Origin: an uncultured Candidatus Saccharibacteria bacterium | GTDB lineage: Bacteria; Patescibacteriota; Minisyncoccia; Phycocordibacterales; Phycocordibacteraceae | Length of the DNA: 64,000 nt | Reading direction: 5' to 3' | Assembly (NCBI GenBank): GCA_964446735.1 | Contig: CAYUQB010000001.1 | Location: 199,465-263,464 of the forward strand | Shown here: in pieces, positions 850-58,568 of the stretch | How positions within the stretch are numbered: the stretch's first letter is position 1 | Layout: every line of letters begins with the position of its first letter | Position numbers and translations under genes: made by a program | Notes under the pieces: generated by a model | Seen by the model: the letters and a program-made list of their open reading frames with translations, nothing else | Told to the model about the DNA's origin: nothing | The model's database searches: none

Positions 850-1608
850 TTACGGTTTTGCGGGCGTGGAGGTTGCGGATAGCAAGGTCTTGATCTTATC
901 GGTTGGTGCGAAGGTTCCTACAGAGTCCAGTGCAATACCGACAATATGACCGGAGCTATTCACTGCTGCAGAGCCTACGGCCACATTGCTGAGGCTCGTG
1001 TGAATGAGGTCATCGACCTTGGCGATGATGCCGGTGAGCGCACCGCCTCCGACACTAGCAGCAAGAACGGTCTGTCCCTGCTTCAGTTCACTCTTCGCGA
1101 CCAGGTTTGGTACCGCGACCTTGGGCAGCACTGCGGCGTCACCAAACCCGTAGATGGTCACGGTGGCACCTGCCTTGGAGAGTGAGGCGGGAGCGGCGGA
1201 ACCATCAGCAAATTCGATGAGTACCTCACGTGGAAGTCCTGGTGTCGATGCAGTTGCGATTGCCTTCGCACTTGGGAGGTACGTCCCTACCGCAATTGCC
1301 GGAGACGAGGTTGAACGGACGTGTATCGAGACTGATCTTGATACGTTTGCGGCGAGTGCTGCGGTGAGTAGATCTTCGTCATGGATGACCACGGTACGTG
1401 GAGGCGTCTGGATAATCCGCTCGATGGGCGTAGTTGAGGCAACCGCGTCCACCGTCCGCTCAACGATTTGATTCACCGTTTGAGTAATGGTGGGTGGTGC
1501 CTGATCCAGAAGCGACACCGTGAGTACCCCTACGGCAATCGAGGTCACGAAGTTCACCAACACCGTGAGCAGGAGAAGCTGGGTTTTTGTAAGATCCTCC
1601 AGGTTCAT
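850..1608 (-). CDS. Trypsin-like (S1/HtrA-type) serine protease domain protein with an N-terminal TM anchor; the active-site motif is divergent
   Basis: ORF 850..1737 (-). The start was moved to the internal ATG of MNLEDL, which has a GGAGA SD and sits 8 nt after the iscS-like stop. A TM helix is followed by an S1-like fold, with GSAAVNSSGHIVGIA in place of the GNSGGPLVN..GxVIGI motif. Confidence 0.5.
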   Translation of the reverse strand: MNLEDLTKTQLLLLTVLVNFVTSIAVGVLTVSLLDQAPPTITQTVNQIVERTVDAVASTTPIERIIQTPPRTVVIHDEDLLTAALAANVSRSVSIHVRSTSSPAIAVGTYLPSAKAIATASTPGLPREVLIEFADGSAAPASLSKAGATVTIYGFGDAAVLPKVAVPNLVAKSELKQGQTVLAASVGGGALTGIIAKVDDLIHTSLSNVAVGSAAVNSSGHIVGIALDSVGTFAPTDKIKTLLSATSTPAKP

Positions 1609-1615
1609 ATCTCCA

Positions 1616-2752
1616 TTATATAGCGTTCTCATCCAGGAATCGAACGGTGCGGACAAGTGCCTCACCAAAGCGCATAAGGTCACGGTGGTGAGTCGTCGGA
1701 CCCCACGAGATTCGGAGTGTTGATCGGGCACGTGCATCGTCCCCCGTCATCGCGAGCACTGAGCGAGATCCGGTATCTGAATCGGATTCACACGCGCTTT
1801 TGGTCGAGACTGCAAACCCCTCCGTATCAAGGAGCGCAACAAGATAGTCGGTATCACGCCCGATGCAGGAGACGTTCAGAATATGTGGGACTTTCTCCTC
1901 ACTCTCGTTCACGATTAGATTCGGAATTTCACGGATGCGAGTAATCAGGCTCTCGCGCAGCACACTCGCTCGTGTAGCAAACTTCTCTCGTCCCTCTTCG
2001 CATTCGGTAAGTGCAGTAGCAAATGCAGTAGCAAGTGCAGGGTTTTCGGTACCTGGTCGCAGTCCGCGTTCTTGACCACCTCCGCGCATGAGTGGCGCAA
2101 GGGATACGTGCGGACGAAGGAGGAGTACGCCGATACCACGTACGCCACCCACCTTTTGTGCATCAAGCGATACTGCATCCGCCCCAAGATGCGCGAGGGT
2201 GAAGGATTCTACAAGCGGCAGCTGGCTTGCGTCTACATGGAGTATGATCGGGGTGTCCTTCTGCGCATCGAGTGCTCTACGGACCGCACGAGTATCGAAT
2301 CGTTCGCCGGTCTCGCTGTTCACTGCGTCCATCGTGACCAGTACGGTGTCGTTGCGGAGCTTAGAAGTAAGGTCTGATGGGACGAAAGGTTCCACCTCTG
2401 CTCCTTCCGCCGTGAGCATATCGATGGCACCGATCACGGAGGCGTGCTGACTGGCCTGGTAGAGAACATGTGCCGCTTGTACTCCACGAGCACGCACCGC
2501 ACCTAGGATCGCAAGCGCGTTTGCTTCGGTTGCGCCTGAGGTAAAGATCACGCGTTCCGCTTTCACCTCTGCCATCCGGGCGATGCGCGTCCGAGCGTCC
2601 TCAAGTACCGCCTTAGCAGCTCGTGCTTCGCTGTAGGATGCGCCGGGATTCCCGTATGCAGTAAGCGCAGCACTAAATACTCCGCGTGCTCGCGAAGATA
2701 CGGGAGCGGCAGCCGCCCAATCGAGATACGTTCGTGATTCGCCAAATCTCAT
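1616..2752 (-). CDS. Cysteine desulfurase (class V aminotransferase, IscS/NifS-like)
   Basis: 378 aa. The PLP-fold motifs FTSGATEANA, HVDASQ and SLDAQKVGGVRGIGVL are present, and the C-terminus carries the active Cys (STKSACES). Confidence 0.8.
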   Translation of the reverse strand: MRFGESRTYLDWAAAAPVSSRARGVFSAALTAYGNPGASYSEARAAKAVLEDARTRIARMAEVKAERVIFTSGATEANALAILGAVRARGVQAAHVLYQASQHASVIGAIDMLTAEGAEVEPFVPSDLTSKLRNDTVLVTMDAVNSETGERFDTRAVRRALDAQKDTPIILHVDASQLPLVESFTLAHLGADAVSLDAQKVGGVRGIGVLLLRPHVSLAPLMRGGGQERGLRPGTENPALATAFATALTECEEGREKFATRASVLRESLITRIREIPNLIVNESEEKVPHILNVSCIGRDTDYLVALLDTEGFAVSTKSACESDSDTGSRSVLAMTGDDARARSTLRISWGPTTHHRDLMRFGEALVRTVRFLDENAI

Positions 2753-8662: not shown

Positions 8663-8698
8663 GACCCGGACGCTTCGTGCGCCCGGGTCTTTTCTTTA
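8663..8698. terminator. Bidirectional rho-independent terminator
   Basis: gacccggacgc-ttcgt-gcgcccgggtc followed by ttttcttt. It sits between the convergent gene ends at 8630 (+) and 8696 (-). Confidence 0.55.
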
Positions 8699-8962
8699 CT
8701 TAACCGAATCAGGCACGTCTACACCAAACGTACTCGCAAGAATAGCGACAATGGCTTTTGCTCCAAAGATAATGACCAGACCGATGAGACCCCAGATCAT
8801 ATGCTGCTGACCGGTAGTACGCTTTTCTTCGTTTGCTGCTCCCCCAATGAAGTCGACAACGCCCCACACGAAGACGATGAACGCTGCAAGCGCGATAAGG
8901 GTAATGAGCGGATTGATGATGGCAGTTTCTACCTTGCCGAGAAATTCATTGAATGCATTCAT
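8696..8962 (-). CDS. T4SS-pilin-like (VirB2/TrbC-like) small membrane protein, paralog 1
   Basis: 88 aa. It has two hydrophobic helices separated by the short polar loop GGAANEEKRTTGQQ. The architecture is shared with the next four genes. Confidence 0.55.
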   Translation of the reverse strand: MNAFNEFLGKVETAIINPLITLIALAAFIVFVWGVVDFIGGAANEEKRTTGQQHMIWGLIGLVIIFGAKAIVAILASTFGVDVPDSVK

Positions 8963-9026
8963 TGGACTTCATAATAGCAGAACCCGCGTCCAGGGACGCG
9001 GGTTCTGCGTGGAGAGTGGATCGCGA

Positions 9027-9386
9027 TTACCGGCCGCGAGTCGTGTACGGAGCGGTTGGGTACGTTGGGACCGAAGGATTGAGGCTGAAGGTGCCAATGA
9101 GAATGTGGACCAGACCCCAGACAGAGACCATCACAAAGAAGCCAATAAGGCCCCAAAGCATGAGGGACTTGCCTGCTTCACGCTTCTCTTCATCATGTCC
9201 TCCCTGGATGAAGTACTGGAAGATACCCCAGATGAAGACGATGAAGGCGAGTGCGAAGACGATGGGCACTGCCACGTTATTAATAAGGTCGATCACGATA
9301 CGACCTGCATCATTGATGCTGTTGACCTGTGCGAACGCAAGCGCCGGAAGGGCGAGTGCGGCACCGATAAAGCCGAGTTTCTTCAT
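9027..9386 (-). CDS. T4SS-pilin-like (VirB2/TrbC-like) small membrane protein with signal peptide, paralog 2
   Basis: Signal peptide MKKLGFIGAALALPALAFAQ, then PIVFALAFIVFIWGIF..QGGHDEEKREAGKS..LMLWGLIGFFVMVSVWGLV. Confidence 0.6.
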   Translation of the reverse strand: MKKLGFIGAALALPALAFAQVNSINDAGRIVIDLINNVAVPIVFALAFIVFIWGIFQYFIQGGHDEEKREAGKSLMLWGLIGFFVMVSVWGLVHILIGTFSLNPSVPTYPTAPYTTRGR

Positions 9387-9481
9387 GTAATGGATAGATT
9401 ATGTAACCGCGAAGGTTCTTCTATAGGATAGCGCGACGAAAGGGTCAGTCAATCAAGCCTGTACTTTCGTGTGGACAAGGC

Positions 9482-10177
9482 TTATTCGCGACACACGCCC
9501 GTCCCGTCGGCAATGAGATCGCACTTTACTCCCACCGGGCACTGACGATCATCGTAGCAAGGGGTGTACGTCTGACTACCTCCTCCAGAACTGGACGCTG
9601 GTTGTCCCGTCTTCGGATCAATACATTCCGGTGTGCTATTGAAGCCGTAGCTGGCTACATAGACCGTTCCTGGCGGGCAGTTGGCGTCACTTGGTCCTGA
9701 ACCACTGCCTGACCCCGAACCGCTACCCGATCCACTCCCTGACGGCACAAACGTATTGTTGTTATTCGTATTACTTCCCCCCGTCGGTGCTCCGAATATT
9801 GGAAGCGGTGGTCGTGTATCTCGATTGAATCCAAGGGTGCCGACTAAGAGATTGATGATTCCCCAGACTGAGAACATGAGGAAAAATCCGATGAGACCGT
9901 AGAGCACCAACTTCTGACCTTCTTGGCGCTTCTCTTCATTCGTTGCCCCTGCAATGAAGGTGACGAAGACGCCCCAAATGAAGACGATGAAGGCGAGTGC
10001 GAAGACGATGGGCACGACATACCGATCGATGAAGTAGATGATCGTGAGCAAGAAGGTGCCCAACGTGTCTGCGCTTCTGGTATCGGGTTCGGCGGCATAC
10101 GCAAGAGGCGCAAACGTTAGGAAACCAAGAGTAAGGACAACGCTTGCGCGAGCGAAGAATGAAGTAAGTCGGTGCAT
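9482..10177 (-). CDS. T4SS-pilin-like domain fused to a (SG)n linker and a C-terminal 7-Cys module
   Basis: The start was moved to MHRLTSFF, which begins a signal peptide; the track ORF runs to 10213. The pilin hairpin PIVFALAFIVFIWGVF..TNEEKRQEGQK..LVLYGLIGFFLMFSVWGI is followed by SGSGSGSGSGSGSGSG and a Cys-rich tail. Confidence 0.55.
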   Translation of the reverse strand: MHRLTSFFARASVVLTLGFLTFAPLAYAAEPDTRSADTLGTFLLTIIYFIDRYVVPIVFALAFIVFIWGVFVTFIAGATNEEKRQEGQKLVLYGLIGFFLMFSVWGIINLLVGTLGFNRDTRPPLPIFGAPTGGSNTNNNNTFVPSGSGSGSGSGSGSGSGPSDANCPPGTVYVASYGFNSTPECIDPKTGQPASSSGGGSQTYTPCYDDRQCPVGVKCDLIADGTGVCRE

Positions 10178-10213
10178 ATGCCTAAAGCGTAGCAGGCAGT
10201 GGCTAGGCAGCAA

Positions 10214-10525
10214 CTAGCCTACTGGGATAAAGGAGAGGAGGAGCCGAACGATACCCCAGACCCCAAAGAGAACGATCATGCCAATCAAGCTCCAAAGCAC
10301 GAATGCCCTTCCTTTCTGTCGATTCTCCTCACCACCGGTAAAGAAATAGCGAAAGATGCCAAACAGAAAGAACAGGAAGGCGATGATATAGAGGAGAGGA
10401 ATAACTGCCCCATCCACAAACGCGACGATCCCATTGGGTCCATTTACGATCTGTTCGAAGGTCGGAGCAGCGTACGCCGGAAGGGCAATGAGTAACGTGA
10501 GAAATAGGAAAGCGAGACGTATCAT
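10214..10525 (-). CDS. T4SS-pilin-like (VirB2/TrbC-like) small membrane protein with signal peptide, paralog 4
   Basis: Signal peptide MIRLAFLFLTLLIALPAYA, then IPLLYIIAFLFFLFGIF..TGGEENRQKGRA..FVLWSLIGMIVLFGVWGIV. It overlaps the upstream gene by 4 nt (ATGA). Confidence 0.6.
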   Translation of the reverse strand: MIRLAFLFLTLLIALPAYAAPTFEQIVNGPNGIVAFVDGAVIPLLYIIAFLFFLFGIFRYFFTGGEENRQKGRAFVLWSLIGMIVLFGVWGIVRLLLSFIPVG

Positions 10526-11538
10526 AGGGTTTGGACCGTGGCGGCAATAACTTCACTGATCGCTTTAGCACCAAGAAGAATAAGTCCACCGATCACCGTC
10601 CACATAAGCGCGCTGCGCGCGGTCGACACTTTCTCGGGATTACCCTGCGCCGTCACAAAGAGGAATCCGACCCATACCAGCATAAACACGAGGAGAATTG
10701 CACCGAGCTGCACTACCGCATCAAGAATGGCGTTCAAGAGCTCAGGAAGCGAATCGAACTTGAGAGGATTCTGAAGCGTCCCACCTCCTCCACCCTGAGC
10801 ACCACCACTGGTAGCAGGGCCCTTACCTCCGTCCCCCAGGTTCTCATCACCACCCTTGCCACCGCCCCCAAGGCTTTCTGAAAGACCGAGCGCACTGAGT
10901 GTTGAGGAGCATACTGGTGTTGGCAGTGTGTAGGAATAGGTGGTCTTCGTAATCTTCGTACAGGAGGCAATGATCTTTGAGCTGCGGAGTGCCTTGATTT
11001 GCTCGGTGTATCCTGCCACCTTGGCCTTACATGCAGCTTCGGTGTCGTAAAGTTGTGCACCAACGAGGTAACATTCTTTCCCATCCGACTGCTTCTGCCA
11101 TCCTCCCCCCTCCAAGCTGTACTTATTGATCGCAGACGAGGAGAGCGTGCGGGTATAGGTGGCAGTGCCTGATGTGGTTTGAGTTGTCGCCGTACCTGAA
11201 GAAGAAAGCTTGAGTCCGTAGGTGCTGATCGATCCACTACATGCTGGGCCAGGCAATGTATATGTGTAGGAGGTCTTGGTGATTTGCCCACACTTATCTA
11301 TGAGCACGTTTTCCTTGTTGGCCTGTATTTTTGCAAGATACTCAGTACACGCAGTCTGCTCCTTAAATACATTTACGGAGAGGTTGTAGCACTTCGCCTG
11401 CTCGTTTAGGGTGCGGTACTCGACTGCGTACTGGTTCTGGTCCGCAATCTGGACGGTACGGGTGTAGATCTCCGCCTGTGCAGACGAAGGCACGAGCACG
11501 ACTGCTGCGAGAACGAGGAGTAGGGGAAGCGTACGCAT
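10522..11538 (-). CDS. Secreted tandem 4-Cys-module protein fused to a C-terminal T4SS-pilin-like hairpin, paralog 5
   Basis: Signal peptide MRTLPLLLVLAAVVLVPSSAQA. Two roughly 95-aa internal repeats follow (CYNLSV..CTEY..CGQITKTSYTYTLPGPACS and CYLVGA..CKAK..CTKITKTTYSYTLPTPVCS). Then comes a Gly-rich linker and LLVFMLVWVGFLFVTAQGNPEKVSTARSALMWTVIGGLILLGA. Confidence 0.6.
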   Translation of the reverse strand: MRTLPLLLVLAAVVLVPSSAQAEIYTRTVQIADQNQYAVEYRTLNEQAKCYNLSVNVFKEQTACTEYLAKIQANKENVLIDKCGQITKTSYTYTLPGPACSGSISTYGLKLSSSGTATTQTTSGTATYTRTLSSSAINKYSLEGGGWQKQSDGKECYLVGAQLYDTEAACKAKVAGYTEQIKALRSSKIIASCTKITKTTYSYTLPTPVCSSTLSALGLSESLGGGGKGGDENLGDGGKGPATSGGAQGGGGGTLQNPLKFDSLPELLNAILDAVVQLGAILLVFMLVWVGFLFVTAQGNPEKVSTARSALMWTVIGGLILLGAKAISEVIAATVQTL

Positions 11539-11541
11539 GGA

Positions 11542-12843
11542 TTACGGGAGTGCTGCCGAAAGTGATCCGTCAGCGTCGGTGATCGCGTCATGCACGGTCG
11601 CCCGCCCGCCGATGATGCTATGTATCATACCAGCGAAGATACGGTCGGTTACTGCCGGTGCTGGGGAGAGCCAGCCTTTGGCGATGAGTGCCTGAGAATT
11701 CACAATCGGCGCATAGGGATCGTCTGAACGGCTTGCAAGTGCGCTGCGAGCTGCGGGTGCGACACCAATCGCTCGCACGATGAATCCTGCGAGATTCTTC
11801 TCTGCAAGGGCCGCTGCGGTCTGGTATGCGCCCTCTGCGTTGTCACTTGCTTTAGGAATAGCGAACGCGTATACGACCCCGTACCCCACGCGCTCACTTG
11901 CCGTTTCCGGCTGAGGAACTGACGTCATGTCAAAGTCGAGATTTGGGTTTGCTGATGCAATGAGCGAACGCTCGGACGCGAACCCGATATACAGTGCCGA
12001 ATCCCCGGCAATGAAGCTCTGTCGTGCGTCGGTGATGGAACGGTTCCAGGTGTAGACAATTTTCGCGGGGTCAGCGAACTGGGTGTAGAAGCCGATTGCA
12101 GAATCTACCGTCGTGCCCCCAGAAGCGTTCTCGGCACCTTTTGAGAGCGTGGCGCGACTTCCTGACGGCGTATTCTCAACAATGGGATTCCCTGCTTGTA
12201 GGAGAAGCAGCGACACAATGGCACGTGCATTTGGAATATTGTCATAGGTACCAAGCGCAATCGCACTTTTCTCCACCACGCCAAAGGTGATCTTCTCGGT
12301 AAGTGACGGCGTCATACCGACCACTCCCTCCCACGTTTTAGGTGGCTGTGGAATGTTGGCACTGGCTAACCGTGATCGGTTGTAGAACAGTACCAATGGA
12401 TCAACGGCAATCGGTATGCCGTAGGTGCCGGAAGACGTCAGGAATAAGTAGGAGAGTGGGACGTAGGTATCGCGGAACGAACGCTCCGATAGTGTCGAGA
12501 ACGGAATGACCGACAACTTACTACGCTCGGTCACCAAGCGTTCTTGCGTGGTGATGATGAGATCAGGTCCTGCGCCTGATGCAATGGCTTCCGCGAGATC
12601 ACCATCGAAGTTCACCGGATCATGCTCCTGATAGATAAGTGCATTGAATTCCTGGCGCGTACGACGGAGCTCATCAAGTGCTGGCTGCACCGCACTATCC
12701 GGAAGCGTTCCCCAGATCACCACTTCGCCGATTGGTTTTGCTTGGCCGAATCCCTTGAAGAGCGCGAACGCGAGGATGCCCCCTAAGGCAGCGACGCCAA
12801 AGATCGAGATCACGATGATTTGGAACGGGCGCATGGTGGTCAT
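11542..12843 (-). CDS. Extracellular solute-binding protein (ABC transporter substrate-binding, family-1-like) with an N-terminal TM anchor
   Basis: 433 aa. An N-terminal TM helix is followed by a periplasmic-binding-protein-like fold (PDLIITTQERL..., YIGFASERSL). The family assignment is by overall pattern only. Confidence 0.5.
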   Translation of the reverse strand: MTTMRPFQIIVISIFGVAALGGILAFALFKGFGQAKPIGEVVIWGTLPDSAVQPALDELRRTRQEFNALIYQEHDPVNFDGDLAEAIASGAGPDLIITTQERLVTERSKLSVIPFSTLSERSFRDTYVPLSYLFLTSSGTYGIPIAVDPLVLFYNRSRLASANIPQPPKTWEGVVGMTPSLTEKITFGVVEKSAIALGTYDNIPNARAIVSLLLLQAGNPIVENTPSGSRATLSKGAENASGGTTVDSAIGFYTQFADPAKIVYTWNRSITDARQSFIAGDSALYIGFASERSLIASANPNLDFDMTSVPQPETASERVGYGVVYAFAIPKASDNAEGAYQTAAALAEKNLAGFIVRAIGVAPAARSALASRSDDPYAPIVNSQALIAKGWLSPAPAVTDRIFAGMIHSIIGGRATVHDAITDADGSLSAALP

Positions 12844-17845: not shown

Positions 17846-18666
17846 TCCACAGCCCGGGACGGAGGCACGCAATCGTGTGAGTCTCGACTCACACCCTTGT
17901 GGACTTCCGTCCCGACGAGCCCTTCTTTCGTTTGACCACCACGCATTCCCCGCGTGGTGTTCTTGTTTTTAATGGAACGTATAGGGAAGTCGTGCTACAA
18001 TTCTCGCAATCGCCCACCCGGGCGATATTCACGTTCTAGTCGGAGGGCACATGCCGCCGTTTCAACATCAGCAGCCCATGACGGGCGTCATCCCCAGGTA
18101 CTTGGGGCCAACCGCCCCGAAGTCCTGCGAACGCGACCCGAATCGTCCGCCCGTGCATACGACGCCTCGCGCGTCCAAGCGCTAACGGAGCAGATTCGAT
18201 GGCCGAGCCGCAGGAACACGAAAGCACCTGGTCGCCGCCTCATTGGCAGGATCAGCTCGACACTGGCACCAGCCACCCGACGGACAACAGCGCCGAACGG
18301 TCCTGGCTGGAGCGTCGTGAGGACGATCCGACCACGCACTAGGAACAGGCGAGCGATAGCAGGGAAGTCGAGTGCCAACACGCGTCGACTATGGAGGAAA
18401 CGTCCCATCAACGAACCCCGTGCACGCTCGTCGGGGTGGAGGGCGCGTCGCCCTCCACCCAGTTCCTGGTTAGTTCTTTGTCCGCAGGTGCGGACGTCCA
18501 TCAGAAGATGAAGAAGGTCTGCCAAACGGCAGGCTTTATTTATTTTGCGCACTTCCCTCTCTATCTCGTCTTGACGTTATCCACAGGTGCTGGTATGGTA
18601 TTGCCGCTGACCGGAGTGCATTTCCACTTCGTCGACGTCAGCGAAGTTCCAACCGGAGAGACTCTC

Positions 18667-56585: not shown

Positions 56586-58568
56586 CTATGGAAGTACGGG
56601 AGCAGTAAGTTCCATATCAGGGCACGCAATGCGGTTGATCTTGTAGCTGGTCGTCTTATAGACGTAGCCAGTTGGGGTCTGTGCGGTCGGAAGACCGAAC
56701 GGTACCCACGGGAGAAGTACATCTTCCCAGTACTTGAGCTGGAAGGCGTTCACCGCGAGCGTCGTGACGGTGTCGAAGAGTCCAGAGGTCGAGAGGTTCG
56801 TATCCATCTCATCATTGAGGAATTCTTGGAGTACGGTTACCTGACCCGAATCGTTTACTTGGCTCTCACGCATCCAGCTAGTAATGAGAGGACAGGAGGC
56901 GCCGAGCACTTCTCCGCCGCTACTGCTGCGGGAGCCGCCTCCACCACCACCTCCACCTCCTCCGCCCCCACCTCCGCCAGAGCTGGCAATAGTGGGTTCG
57001 AAGTCGAAGATAGTGGTCATGGTGCTGGTAGCAGTACTCGTTCCGGTAGTGGTTCCAGTGATGTCATTCATGCGCGTAATGCGCAGGTCATCGATCGCTG
57101 CGGATACCGTCGTTGAGCCGTTAGGACTTTGGAGACCCACACCCAAGAGCGGGCTGGTAGTTCCCACCGTCAGATTTGGGAATGCCGTGAGGAGGTTCGT
57201 CCAGCTCCGGAACTGGTTGGTGTTCCCATCAGGCCATTGATTGCCCGAGGTCGCATAGTTCGACCAGGTCCACATGCTGCTTGAGGTTGCGAGCTGCCAG
57301 GTTTGCCAGGTGCCGGTGGCAACGGTTCCTGAATGTTGTGGCATGAAGACCAGCTGACCATTCACCGATCCATTGCCACTAAAGAGCGGAGCGAAGGCGA
57401 TGAACGGAGCGACTACGGAAGTAGTTGCAGTGGTCGTACCGGATACGGTTCCGAAGTCGGAGAGATACGTAGCGAAGGAGAGTTCACTCACGTCAGAGAG
57501 CTCGGTACCGCCGAACTGATAGGTAGCGATAGCGGAGGTGCCGGTCGTGGTTGCTGTAAGTGAGACACTTCCAGAGCCAAGCGGTGCGGTACCCGGACCG
57601 GTCACGAAGGTACCGACTGACGGATCGATGTTCTGCGTTACGCCGTTCCAGAAGAACCACTTATTGGTCGAGCTTGCCTCTGCAAGGGTTGTGGCAAGGT
57701 CTGCTTCACGCACGACAATGGTCTCGGTCACCGGTGTCGTGGTCCCGTTTCCGCCACCACCACCGCCTCCCCCACCTCCTCCATTGGTAGGTGGCATGTT
57801 GTCGGTGAGGCAGTACTCATTTACTACCAGCACATACTTATTCGTCGTGAGGTTAGTGAAGGAAGGAGCACTCACGGTGAGCGTTGCTGTCTCAGCTCCC
57901 GCGAGGGTATCACCCGCTCGATATCCTACGGTGCGATAGTGGCCGGCAACGCAGGCACTACCGTTTGCAATCACTGCATCGGTTGACGACGCTGCGGGCG
58001 CATTCACTTCATGTGCGGTGTAGGAAGCGCCCGAGGCCATAAGCGATGTGCTCACCTGTGCGGTACCGAGAGTGAAGGTGCCGGTTGTGGTCGTACCGCC
58101 ATTAAGATTGGCTGCGGTCCATGTTGCTTCCATGGGGAAGAAGCGGAACGTGGTGGTTGCATCCGCGAATGACTGAGTCGTCGATGCATCCTGAATGTAT
58201 TTGACGAGATGCACCTGCACGAATGCAGGTGTGGTGGTCCCCCCACCTCCCCCACCACCATTTGTCGGACAGGTTGTGGTTGCAGTTGGATTCGTGGTTG
58301 TGCCCGTGGGGAGGGTCGGACAGGTTGGCTCCGTCGGAGCAGTTGGTTCTGCTGGAGACGTGGGTGAGGTCGGTTCGGTGGGTGCAGTCGGAGCAGTTGG
58401 TTCCGTCGGAGGAGTCGGGCTAACAACGATTGGGGGCGTAGTCGTGCTCGTCTGTGCGATGACGGCCTGCGGCATGCCTGACGTTATGAACGTCAGTGCA
58501 AGCAGCGCCACAAAAACACTGCCCGCCCCCTGCAGCGTCTTCGGGCGCAATCTGATTTTCTTCAACAT
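56586..58568 (-). CDS. Large secreted low-complexity surface protein (Pro/Thr repeats, poly-Gly tracts)
   Basis: The signal peptide is followed by PTEPTAPTAPTEPTSPTSPAEPTAPTEPT repeats. There are several G7-G15 runs and T/S/G-rich β-rich regions. Confidence 0.55.
   Translation of the reverse strand: MLKKIRLRPKTLQGAGSVFVALLALTFITSGMPQAVIAQTSTTTPPIVVSPTPPTEPTAPTAPTEPTSPTSPAEPTAPTEPTCPTLPTGTTTNPTATTTCPTNGGGGGGGTTTPAFVQVHLVKYIQDASTTQSFADATTTFRFFPMEATWTAANLNGGTTTTGTFTLGTAQVSTSLMASGASYTAHEVNAPAASSTDAVIANGSACVAGHYRTVGYRAGDTLAGAETATLTVSAPSFTNLTTNKYVLVVNEYCLTDNMPPTNGGGGGGGGGGGNGTTTPVTETIVVREADLATTLAEASSTNKWFFWNGVTQNIDPSVGTFVTGPGTAPLGSGSVSLTATTTGTSAIATYQFGGTELSDVSELSFATYLSDFGTVSGTTTATTSVVAPFIAFAPLFSGNGSVNGQLVFMPQHSGTVATGTWQTWQLATSSSMWTWSNYATSGNQWPDGNTNQFRSWTNLLTAFPNLTVGTTSPLLGVGLQSPNGSTTVSAAIDDLRITRMNDITGTTTGTSTATSTMTTIFDFEPTIASSGGGGGGGGGGGGGGGSRSSSGGEVLGASCPLITSWMRESQVNDSGQVTVLQEFLNDEMDTNLSTSGLFDTVTTLAVNAFQLKYWEDVLLPWVPFGLPTAQTPTGYVYKTTSYKINRIACPDMELTAPVLP
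58313..58436 (-). repeat. Tandem imperfect PT(E/A/S)P-coding repeats inside the surface-protein gene
   Basis: gtcggagcagttggttc recurs at about 58333 and 58393. It encodes a PTxPT periodicity. Confidence 0.5.

Follow-up and report, generated by a model that had tools for sequence, protein, structure and literature searches.

A decorated VirB2-like pilin with a cysteine-rich C-terminal tail in a conserved five-gene pilin array of Patescibacteria

Introduction

Tandem arrays of small VirB2-like pilins have been described in the Patescibacteria, which account for a large share of bacterial diversity and whose cultivated members live attached to other microbes. In Saccharibacteria these arrays encode 4–6 small signal-peptide proteins. 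Across Patescibacteria, 441 VirB2-like arrays of 2–11 genes each have been counted, with pilins near virB4 in 1,135 of 1,948 assemblies (PMC12102498), so that proximity to virB4 is common, not universal. How these bacteria recognise and hold their hosts is largely unexplained; in the one species tested, Candidatus (Ca.) Southlakia epibionticum, the array is essential for epibiotic growth (PMC10633639). We analysed a stretch of 64,000 nucleotides (contig CAYUQB010000001.1, positions 199,465–263,464; hereafter the window) that holds a five-gene array of this kind, and we concentrate on its third gene (gene 3), in which a pilin core is extended by a cysteine-rich C-terminal tail. The analysis followed up a first-pass annotation made from the letters of the window, which had described an N-terminal pilin hairpin, an (SG)8 linker and a seven-cysteine C-terminal module in the open reading frame (ORF) at 9482–10213.

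The arrays of TM7x and of Ca. Southlakia epibionticum ML1 resemble the window array in consisting of 4–6 tandem, diverged PF18895 paralogues with signal peptides, encoded by a monoderm with a reduced genome. The published Patescibacteria arrays are made up of small, structurally conserved pilins in or near a virB4 cluster, whereas the window array lies in gyrA and methyltransferase surroundings behind a solute-binding-protein gene and, unlike them, carries large, variable, cysteine-rich extensions at two fixed positions. The literature searched on Patescibacteria arrays makes no mention of extensions, cysteine modules, a fixed gene order or a link to a solute-binding protein. The VirB2-like array as such is already known, and its position-specific decoration with cysteine modules was not found in the literature searched.

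More distant systems share individual features with gene 3. The conjugative pilins TraA (F), VirB2 (Ti) and TrbC (RP4) likewise have a signal peptide ahead of a helical hairpin whose charged loop is short, but unlike gene 3 they are about 60–80 residues long when mature, are often cyclised or acetylated and bear no appended domains. Subunits of the F pilus have both termini on the exterior and line the lumen with the loop that links their two long helices (PMC5018250); either end is thus suited to display. Tandem diverged VirB2 copies also occur in Bartonella and Anaplasma, where they have been read as a means of antigenic variation or of widening the host range (cited in PMC12102498); there the variation lies within the pilin itself, whereas arrays of the window type have conserved cores and vary in modules appended at two positions. 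Mbov_0395 (NF045849) of the Mycoplasma integrative and conjugative element is similarly a small protein with two helices from the conjugation system of a monoderm, but it is encoded by a mobile element and is neither arrayed nor decorated. Modular type IV pilus pilins of the Streptococcus sanguinis PilB/PilC type combine a pilin with a functional, often adhesive, module in a minor subunit. They offer the same display concept as gene 3, with an unrelated pilin family and assembly machine.

Results and Discussion

Gene 3 encodes a PF18895 pilin with a long C-terminal extension

The minus-strand ORF at 9482–10213 has 243 codons counted from a TTG in the ORF list of the window, and the peptide quoted in the first-pass annotation matches its translation exactly. 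Because homologues have their N-termini level with Met13 (MHRLTSFF in gene 3, compared with MNRF... or MIRT...), the ATG at 10177 is the likely start, which gives a coding sequence for a decorated pilin of 231 residues at 9485–10177 with its stop codon at 9482–9484; all features of gene 3 and of the array given below are also on the minus strand. It is one gene and not two, as the frame of the tail is the sole stop-free frame there and orthologues join core and tail in one ORF. The protein begins with a Sec-type signal peptide (MHRLTSFFARASVVLTLGFLTFAPLAYA, followed by A; 10091–10177), recognised from sequence and hydropathy by its basic n-region, hydrophobic core and AYA cleavage motif and modelled by AlphaFold2 as a helix at residues 3–25. 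The putative cleavage site, judged from the motif, lies between AYA and the following A.

The signal peptide is followed by the pilin core (9824–10072), in which the charged loop TNEEKRQEGQK (9911–9943) connects two hydrophobic helices. The core was delimited with Pfam PF18895 (T4SS_pilin), with an iterated hidden Markov model built in this analysis (E = 1e-31) and with AlphaFold2, which, given 24 homologues as input, modelled helices at residues 39–77 and 81–114 with predicted local distance difference test (pLDDT) values of 82–89. Gene 3 scored 36.5 bits against PF18895 (cut-off 26.6, E = 5e-9) over residues 46–112, and this match together with the modelled helical hairpin bears out the N-terminal position of the pilin-like part. 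PF18895 is also above its gathering threshold in all four array neighbours and in all 24 aligned homologues. The layout of that family, a signal peptide and two hydrophobic helices with a short charged loop, is found in gene 3 both in the sequence and in the AlphaFold2 model, and the five adjacent, diverged paralogues agree with its occurrence in tandem arrays. A search of 5.8 billion proteins with gene 3 returned 25 homologues, all of which except the weakest carry PF18895; a source name is available for a few, which are annotated as pilin or placed in Parcubacteria or Paceibacterota. Against NCBIfam NF045849, which has a 40-bit cut-off, gene 3 scored 23.1 bits (E = 4e-5) and its paralogues 28–36 bits (E values from 4e-9 to 4e-5 overall); judged by these scores, the array pilins are related to, but not members of, that family. 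A type IV pilus pilin was considered and rejected, as the N-terminus MHRLTSFFARASVVLTLGFLTFAPLAYAAEPD is without a class III prepilin motif and there was no N_methyl or pilin hit in Pfam. The label "pilin" given at first pass thus holds as to a pilin family, PF18895, the kind being VirB2/type IV secretion and not type IV pilus.

Immediately after helix 2 stands RPPLPIF (9794–9814), an instance of an R-P-x-L-P-x-F motif that is invariant in gene-3 orthologues (columns P123, P126 and F128 of A1, the alignment of the 24 homologues) and that is present in nearly all tails. One gene-3 subgroup (loci including L008, L013, L017 and L020) has a cysteine pair inside this motif, in the form RPCLPTFSGxC. 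A sortase signal, suggested by the strings LPTFG and LPIFG, was dismissed by inspection, because they differ from LPxTG and the motif comes after and not before the membrane helix.

Core and tail are separated by a low-complexity, N/S/G-rich linker of 48 residues (9680–9823), seen in the sequence and in pLDDT values below 50 at residues 133–162. It contains a poly-N stretch, NTNNNNT (9752–9772), and the (SG)8 run (9695–9742), both where the first-pass annotation had put them. Length variation of the DNA encoding the SG run, proposed for checking at first pass, is unlikely: no two of the eight SG units share a hexamer and Tandem Repeats Finder found no tandem DNA repeat beneath them, so that the repeat exists in the protein only and slippage is improbable. 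The run therefore has nothing of the slippable, near-perfect DNA repeat that marks a simple-sequence contingency locus. A metagenome scan for contigs of the same species, which included tail-specific peptide patterns, found no relative above 56% identity, and no record of the exact gene 3 protein sequence was found in public assemblies.

The tail consists of a two-cysteine loop and a four-cysteine module

The tail contains six cysteines (residues 179, 197, 219, 225, 231 and 241 of the 243-codon ORF) and not the seven first counted, the seventh cysteine of the ORF being residue 6, upstream of the probable start codon. This even number would allow three disulfides. Of the first-pass description of gene 3 as a whole, the ORF, the hairpin and the linker were thus confirmed and the cysteine count was not.

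Two modules can be recognised. Module A is a two-cysteine loop (CPPGTVYVASYGFNSTPEC, 9623–9679), identified from its copies in the homologue P0001 and from a predicted beta-hairpin; it is 58% and 50% identical to the two P0001 copies over 24 residues (pairwise E = 3e-8 and 4e-7), which speaks against an unconserved tail, and in the full-length AlphaFold2 model it has strands at 172–174 and 184–186 in a block with pLDDT 71–78. Loops of the CPPG type are present in homologues P0003, P0004, P0012 and P0017. A spacer of 21 residues (IDPKTGQPASSSGGGSQTYTP, 9560–9622), with low pLDDT in both the full-length and the tail-only models, leads to the four-cysteine module B (CYDDRQCPVGVKCDLIADGTGVC, 9491–9559; spacing 5-5-9), which was recognised from its cysteine pattern, a profile alignment and AlphaFold2. 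Its block had a pLDDT of 80–87 in the full-length model and 70–81 in the tail-only model, and it aligned to the four-cysteine profile described below across all four cysteines, with a modest score of 10.8 bits.

The modules could not be placed in a known family. Searches of Pfam with the window tail and with module B alone, up to E = 10, gave no family and only a spurious Serglycin match on the SG run, and a word-indexed search of the 5.8 billion proteins returned nothing either for the single tail or for the tail alignment A3. An exhaustive phmmer search of 1.84 billion representatives with the tail gave 11 hits, all actinobacterial WD40-repeat proteins, which were rejected as spurious because the match consisted only of the word DPxTGQPA summed across their repeats. 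Foldseek searches of the PDB gave nothing below E = 2.4 for the full model and a best E of 2.6 for the tail model; the non-significant tail matches (E > 2) were to knottin-type inhibitors, omwaprin, an inhibitor cystine knot (ICK) toxin and a defensin. The comparison with knottin, EGF and chitin-binding folds proposed at first pass gave small modelled beta-hairpins and no significant fold match. The C-x5-C-x2-G-x2-C-x(n)-C spacing is shared with the EB module (PF01683), Dickkopf_N (PF04706), DUF7107 and knottin/ICK proteins. We conclude from sequence and models that the modules are probably small disulfide-stapled hairpins with an EB/Dickkopf-like cysteine pattern, placed in no family; the likeness of the tail to EB/Dickkopf_N-type repeats, which is at the level of the cysteine pattern, may be convergent.

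Cysteine modules recur in gene-3 tails and at the other end of a paralogue

We compared gene-3 tails across 160 sources, namely 79 loci from a scan of species-representative genomes, 80 further loci from a metagenome scan and the window. The genome loci are nearly all labelled Patescibacteria, Paceibacterota, Parcubacteria or Kaiserbacteria. Among 88 distinct C-terminal tails of at least 20 residues, 63 contain cysteine and 25 do not. The cysteine counts of the 63 are 2, 4, 6, 8, 10, 18, 20 or 28, with no odd number among them, as full disulfide pairing would predict. These tails fall into 37 clusters at 40% identity, so that the parity is not owed to a few shared ancestors. The proportion of cysteine is 4.8% among tail residues and 0.52% in the remaining long ORFs of these loci.

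Two module types recur in the tails, two-cysteine loops (often starting with CPPG or CPxG) and a four-cysteine module, C-x3-7-C-x4-5-C-x4-10-C, with consensus GAACTSSSDCPSGLTCSTSNGVCVP and 62 instances in other pilin extensions. Of 87 gene-3 tails 24 have the four-cysteine module, as do 18 of 51 long N-terminal extensions, mostly of gene 1, in other species, compared with 7 of 1489 other ORFs. Homologue P0003 has the A-then-B order of the window protein; elsewhere among the homologues the arrangement is B+B, B+A+A or a series of up to three B+A repeats. Such multi-module tails in homologues pass the Pfam cut-offs (in brackets) of EB with 33.3 bits (24.3), DUF7107 with 27.6 (24.6) and Dickkopf_N with 26.7 (25), and marginally those of Toxin_12 and WAP. 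The first-pass proposal of a modular system, in which small cysteine-rich domains are appended at either end of a common pilin scaffold, is supported by the occurrence of the four-cysteine module at both termini and by the fixed positions of the decorated genes in the array.

Two observations on individual tails may be added. Very long gene-3 tails, of 222–309 residues with 18–28 cysteines, occur at loci L078 (8722–9654), L041 (8624–9742) and L048 (8638–9822) and are built of repeated four-cysteine and two-cysteine units; the one at L078 scores above the EB-module threshold of Pfam. Many gene-3 tails also end in ...NGLY, ...GLH, ...GIY or ...NPF (P0005, P0008, P0010, P0011 and P0017; loci L002, L017, L025, L075, L097 and others), an ending that the window protein does not have and that could be a sorting or processing signal.

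The decorated genes hold fixed positions in a conserved array

In the window, five PF18895 genes stand in tandem on the same strand, and an iterated profile found no others in the 64 kb. Gene 1 (338 residues, 10522–11538) is the neighbouring fusion that the first-pass annotation had reported, and its PF18895 core was confirmed at residues 262–331 (E = 2e-12). It consists of a signal peptide, two tandem repeats of about 100 residues with 4 cysteines each (local alignment score 156, compared with 32 ± 6 in shuffles), a G-rich linker and the C-terminal pilin core. Homologues of its ectodomain (38–41%) were found at loci L054 and L032 only, and other species have different modules there. Gene 2 (103 residues, 10214–10525; PF18895 E = 4e-7) is a plain pilin whose coding sequence shares 4 nucleotides with gene 1, gene 4 (119 residues, 9027–9386; E = 8e-12) is the most conserved paralogue, and gene 5 (88 residues, 8696–8962; E = 1e-7) is again a plain pilin.

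Comparison of the 160 sources put the variable extensions at two fixed places, the N-terminus of gene 1 and the C-terminus of gene 3, and the order of the array was the same across the 79 species loci: N-extended, short, C-tailed, about 119 residues and about 85 residues. In gene 1 the pilin core comes after a variable N-terminal extension of 45–260 residues with 0–13 cysteines; gene 2, a short gene, usually shares 4 nucleotides with gene 1; gene 3 continues beyond its core into a variable C-terminal tail of 14–309 residues; and genes 4 and 5 encode about 116–125 and 80–90 residues. Among the 80 genome-scan sources, five pilin ORFs were counted in 46 and six in 20, and the array is accompanied by a homologue of the solute-binding-protein-like gene in 72, by the methyltransferase in 61 and by GyrA in 59, the sequence of genes being GyrA, methyltransferase, solute-binding-protein-like gene and array.

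Conservation differs sharply between the parts of the array. Gene 4 reaches 91% identity with orthologues from genomes in which GyrA is at 83–87%, which places it, on sequence identity, among the most constrained proteins of the region, and gene 5 goes up to 82%. The gene 3 core is 72–76% identical to orthologues, and its tail has 14–28 identical positions of 101; the closest relative of the whole protein is at about 58%, and GyrA of the nearest genome is at 87%.

A promoter-like sequence, TTGACT-16 nt-TATCCT (9425–9452), was found by consensus scan in the spacer between genes 3 and 4 (9387–9481). The length of this spacer, about 80–110 nucleotides, is conserved across loci, and an alignment of the window with 45 loci showed at least 70% conservation of ATTGAC-N17-TAT.CT and of an upstream element, TTTTCCACACG. 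This pattern suggests that the element is likely an internal promoter for genes 4 and 5, the most conserved plain pilins.

A model of gene 3 as a decorated minor pilin

We favour, with moderate confidence, the view that gene 3 encodes a decorated minor pilin of a Patescibacteria (Paceibacteria-type) five-pilin operon that displays hypervariable disulfide modules outside the cell. After Sec export and cleavage of the signal peptide, the two hydrophobic helices would insert as a hairpin with the charged loop in the cytoplasm; since two membrane helices follow the cleaved signal peptide, the C-terminal tail would come to lie outside. There a flexible linker of about 50 N/S/G residues would hold out the two-cysteine loop and the four-cysteine module, which are most likely locked by three disulfides. 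Hypervariable modules, conserved cores, position-specific decoration and a separate promoter together point to a filament or surface assembly of plain subunits with two decorated minor ones. Genes 4 and 5, plain, highly conserved and with their own conserved promoter, would supply the bulk subunits, gene 4 being likely the major one. Genes 1–3 would share a transcript with the solute-binding-protein gene, made at a lower level than that of genes 4 and 5, and gene 1 with its N-terminal ectodomain and gene 3 with its C-terminal tail would be the low-abundance decorated subunits. If polymerisation is F-like, the gene 1 ectodomain and the gene 3 tail would both lie on the filament surface and be equivalent in space, so that the "opposite topology" ascribed at first pass to the two fusions holds for sequence order and not for spatial arrangement, both ends being probably outside. 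The modules of both would then probably bind host or surface ligands, and gene 3 would so set what the cell sticks to. We infer filament assembly, the roles of major and minor subunits and a function in adhesion or host range; the decorated gene 3 feature itself is real and well supported.

Several points weigh against this model. No cluster of virB4, virB6 and virB3/prgI, in or near which PF18895 genes are expected, was found within the 64-kb window, and none of the 38 larger ORFs scanned there encodes VirB4, VirB6 or other secretion machinery. Gene 3 had no match to PF04956 (TrbC/VirB2), for which the paralogues scored 13.6–19.2 bits (cut-off 27.9). The profile of A1 found no pilin among PDB sequences, only a single chance hit in the linker region, and neither this profile nor Foldseek linked gene 3 to the solved conjugative pilins by sequence or fold. 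The tail matches no known domain significantly, and its homology to other tails is confined to short modules. Cysteine modules do not appear to be required for the role of gene 3, because 25 of the 88 long tails (about 28%) have no cysteine. The minor-subunit role depends on the assumption that filament packing might suffer if each subunit bore a tail of about 100 residues. An extracellular filament formed by PF18895/Patescibacteria pilins has been demonstrated in no monoderm (PMC12857230).

Alternative explanations

One alternative is that the array serves membrane-anchored surface display without a filament, the hairpin acting as anchor, the linker spanning the wall, the modules serving as receptor or adhesin and the paralogues forming a membrane complex. 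The 48-residue flexible linker is long enough for a thin wall, no secretion machinery was found in the window, and type IV secretion systems of the Gram-positive type normally have no pili (PMC12102498, PMC12857230). However, the family is related to conjugative pilins and in Saccharibacteria sits within an essential secretion-system gene cluster (PMC10633639), and five diverged paralogues that include a very conserved plain one fit a polymer of major and minor subunits better than five anchors. We regard an anchor without filament as unlikely, and as the alternative to be weighed most seriously.

A further proposal retains the conjugation-type pilus and assigns it another use, as a modular display scaffold and a new kind of organelle for host contact and uptake working with the solute-binding protein, not as a pilus for secreting DNA or effectors. 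Knottin-like modules shuffled between the N- and C-terminal positions would set the host range, comparable to phage tail-fibre tips, and the co-transcribed orphan solute-binding protein would capture host-derived nutrients together with the filament. This we consider quite unlikely.

The invariant R-P-x-L-P-x-F motif raises the question of whether the tail is a propeptide that is removed at this site during pilin maturation, as the C-terminal residues of RP4 TrbC are cut off before cyclisation. The motif lies exactly at the border of core and tail in all orthologues, whichever tail comes next, the tail is free to vary in length from 14 to 309 residues, and cyclic or processed pilins are common among the solved conjugative pili as far as the source consulted covers them. 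A discarded piece would not be expected, however, to keep strictly even cysteine counts over 37 clusters, nor to share a folded module with the N-terminal extensions of another paralogue, and no TraF-like peptidase was seen in the window. Removal of the tail therefore seems improbable to us.

We give equally little credence to a reading in which the array is no secretion pilus but forms the membrane component of a device for substrate capture or uptake, acting with the co-transcribed solute-binding protein, and the tails are accessory ligand-binding elements. This explanation would account for the orphan SBP_bac_1 gene 3 nucleotides upstream of gene 1, with an adjoining homologue in 72 of the 80 sources and with no ABC (ATP-binding cassette) permease or ATPase seen beside it, and it draws on weak, sub-threshold transporter matches of gene 1 (DctQ, E = 0.015) and gene 5 (transporter families). 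These matches are far under the thresholds and typical of any pair of hydrophobic helices, whereas the pilin-family matches agree across two libraries (Pfam and NCBIfam), and co-transcription is no proof of physical interaction. Release of the tail as a small disulfide-rich peptide, a toxin or signal aimed at the host bacterium with the core as its carrier, we consider highly improbable, the observations in its favour being the knottin-type inhibitors, ICK toxin, omwaprin and defensin among the best, non-significant fold matches and the marginal Toxin_12 and WAP scores of multi-module tails in homologues.

Under the decorated-pilin model, gene-3 tails and gene-1 ectodomains become candidate determinants of host specificity, since hypervariable modules that probably face outward occur at two fixed positions in an array whose other pilins are strongly conserved. 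Such candidates lend themselves to comparison between metagenomes, to correlation with the hosts found alongside and to expression as small folded peptides in binding studies. Engineered epitope fusions to F-pilin exist, and the arrangement described here would be a natural case of domain display on a conjugation-type pilin.

Surroundings of the array in the window

A membrane-anchored solute-binding-protein-like gene (11542–12843, minus strand; PF01547 SBP_bac_1, E = 4e-18), with the membrane anchor at its N-terminus, ends 3 nucleotides before gene 1 and is likely the first gene of the operon. The wider surroundings are of a housekeeping character (GyrA, methyltransferase, IF-2, alanine racemase, FtsA/FtsZ, MurJ, LepA and GroEL), and the 38 larger ORFs scanned are all either housekeeping or without assignment. 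Three ORFs, at 56586–58568 (minus strand, 660 residues), 850–1737 (minus strand, 295 residues) and 17954–18511 (plus strand, 185 residues), had no Pfam match at the thresholds used. Long ORFs antisense to the pilin genes, at 8847–9431 and 9923–10120 on the plus strand, have counterparts in many loci; most likely they result from the codon composition of the pilins and are not genes.

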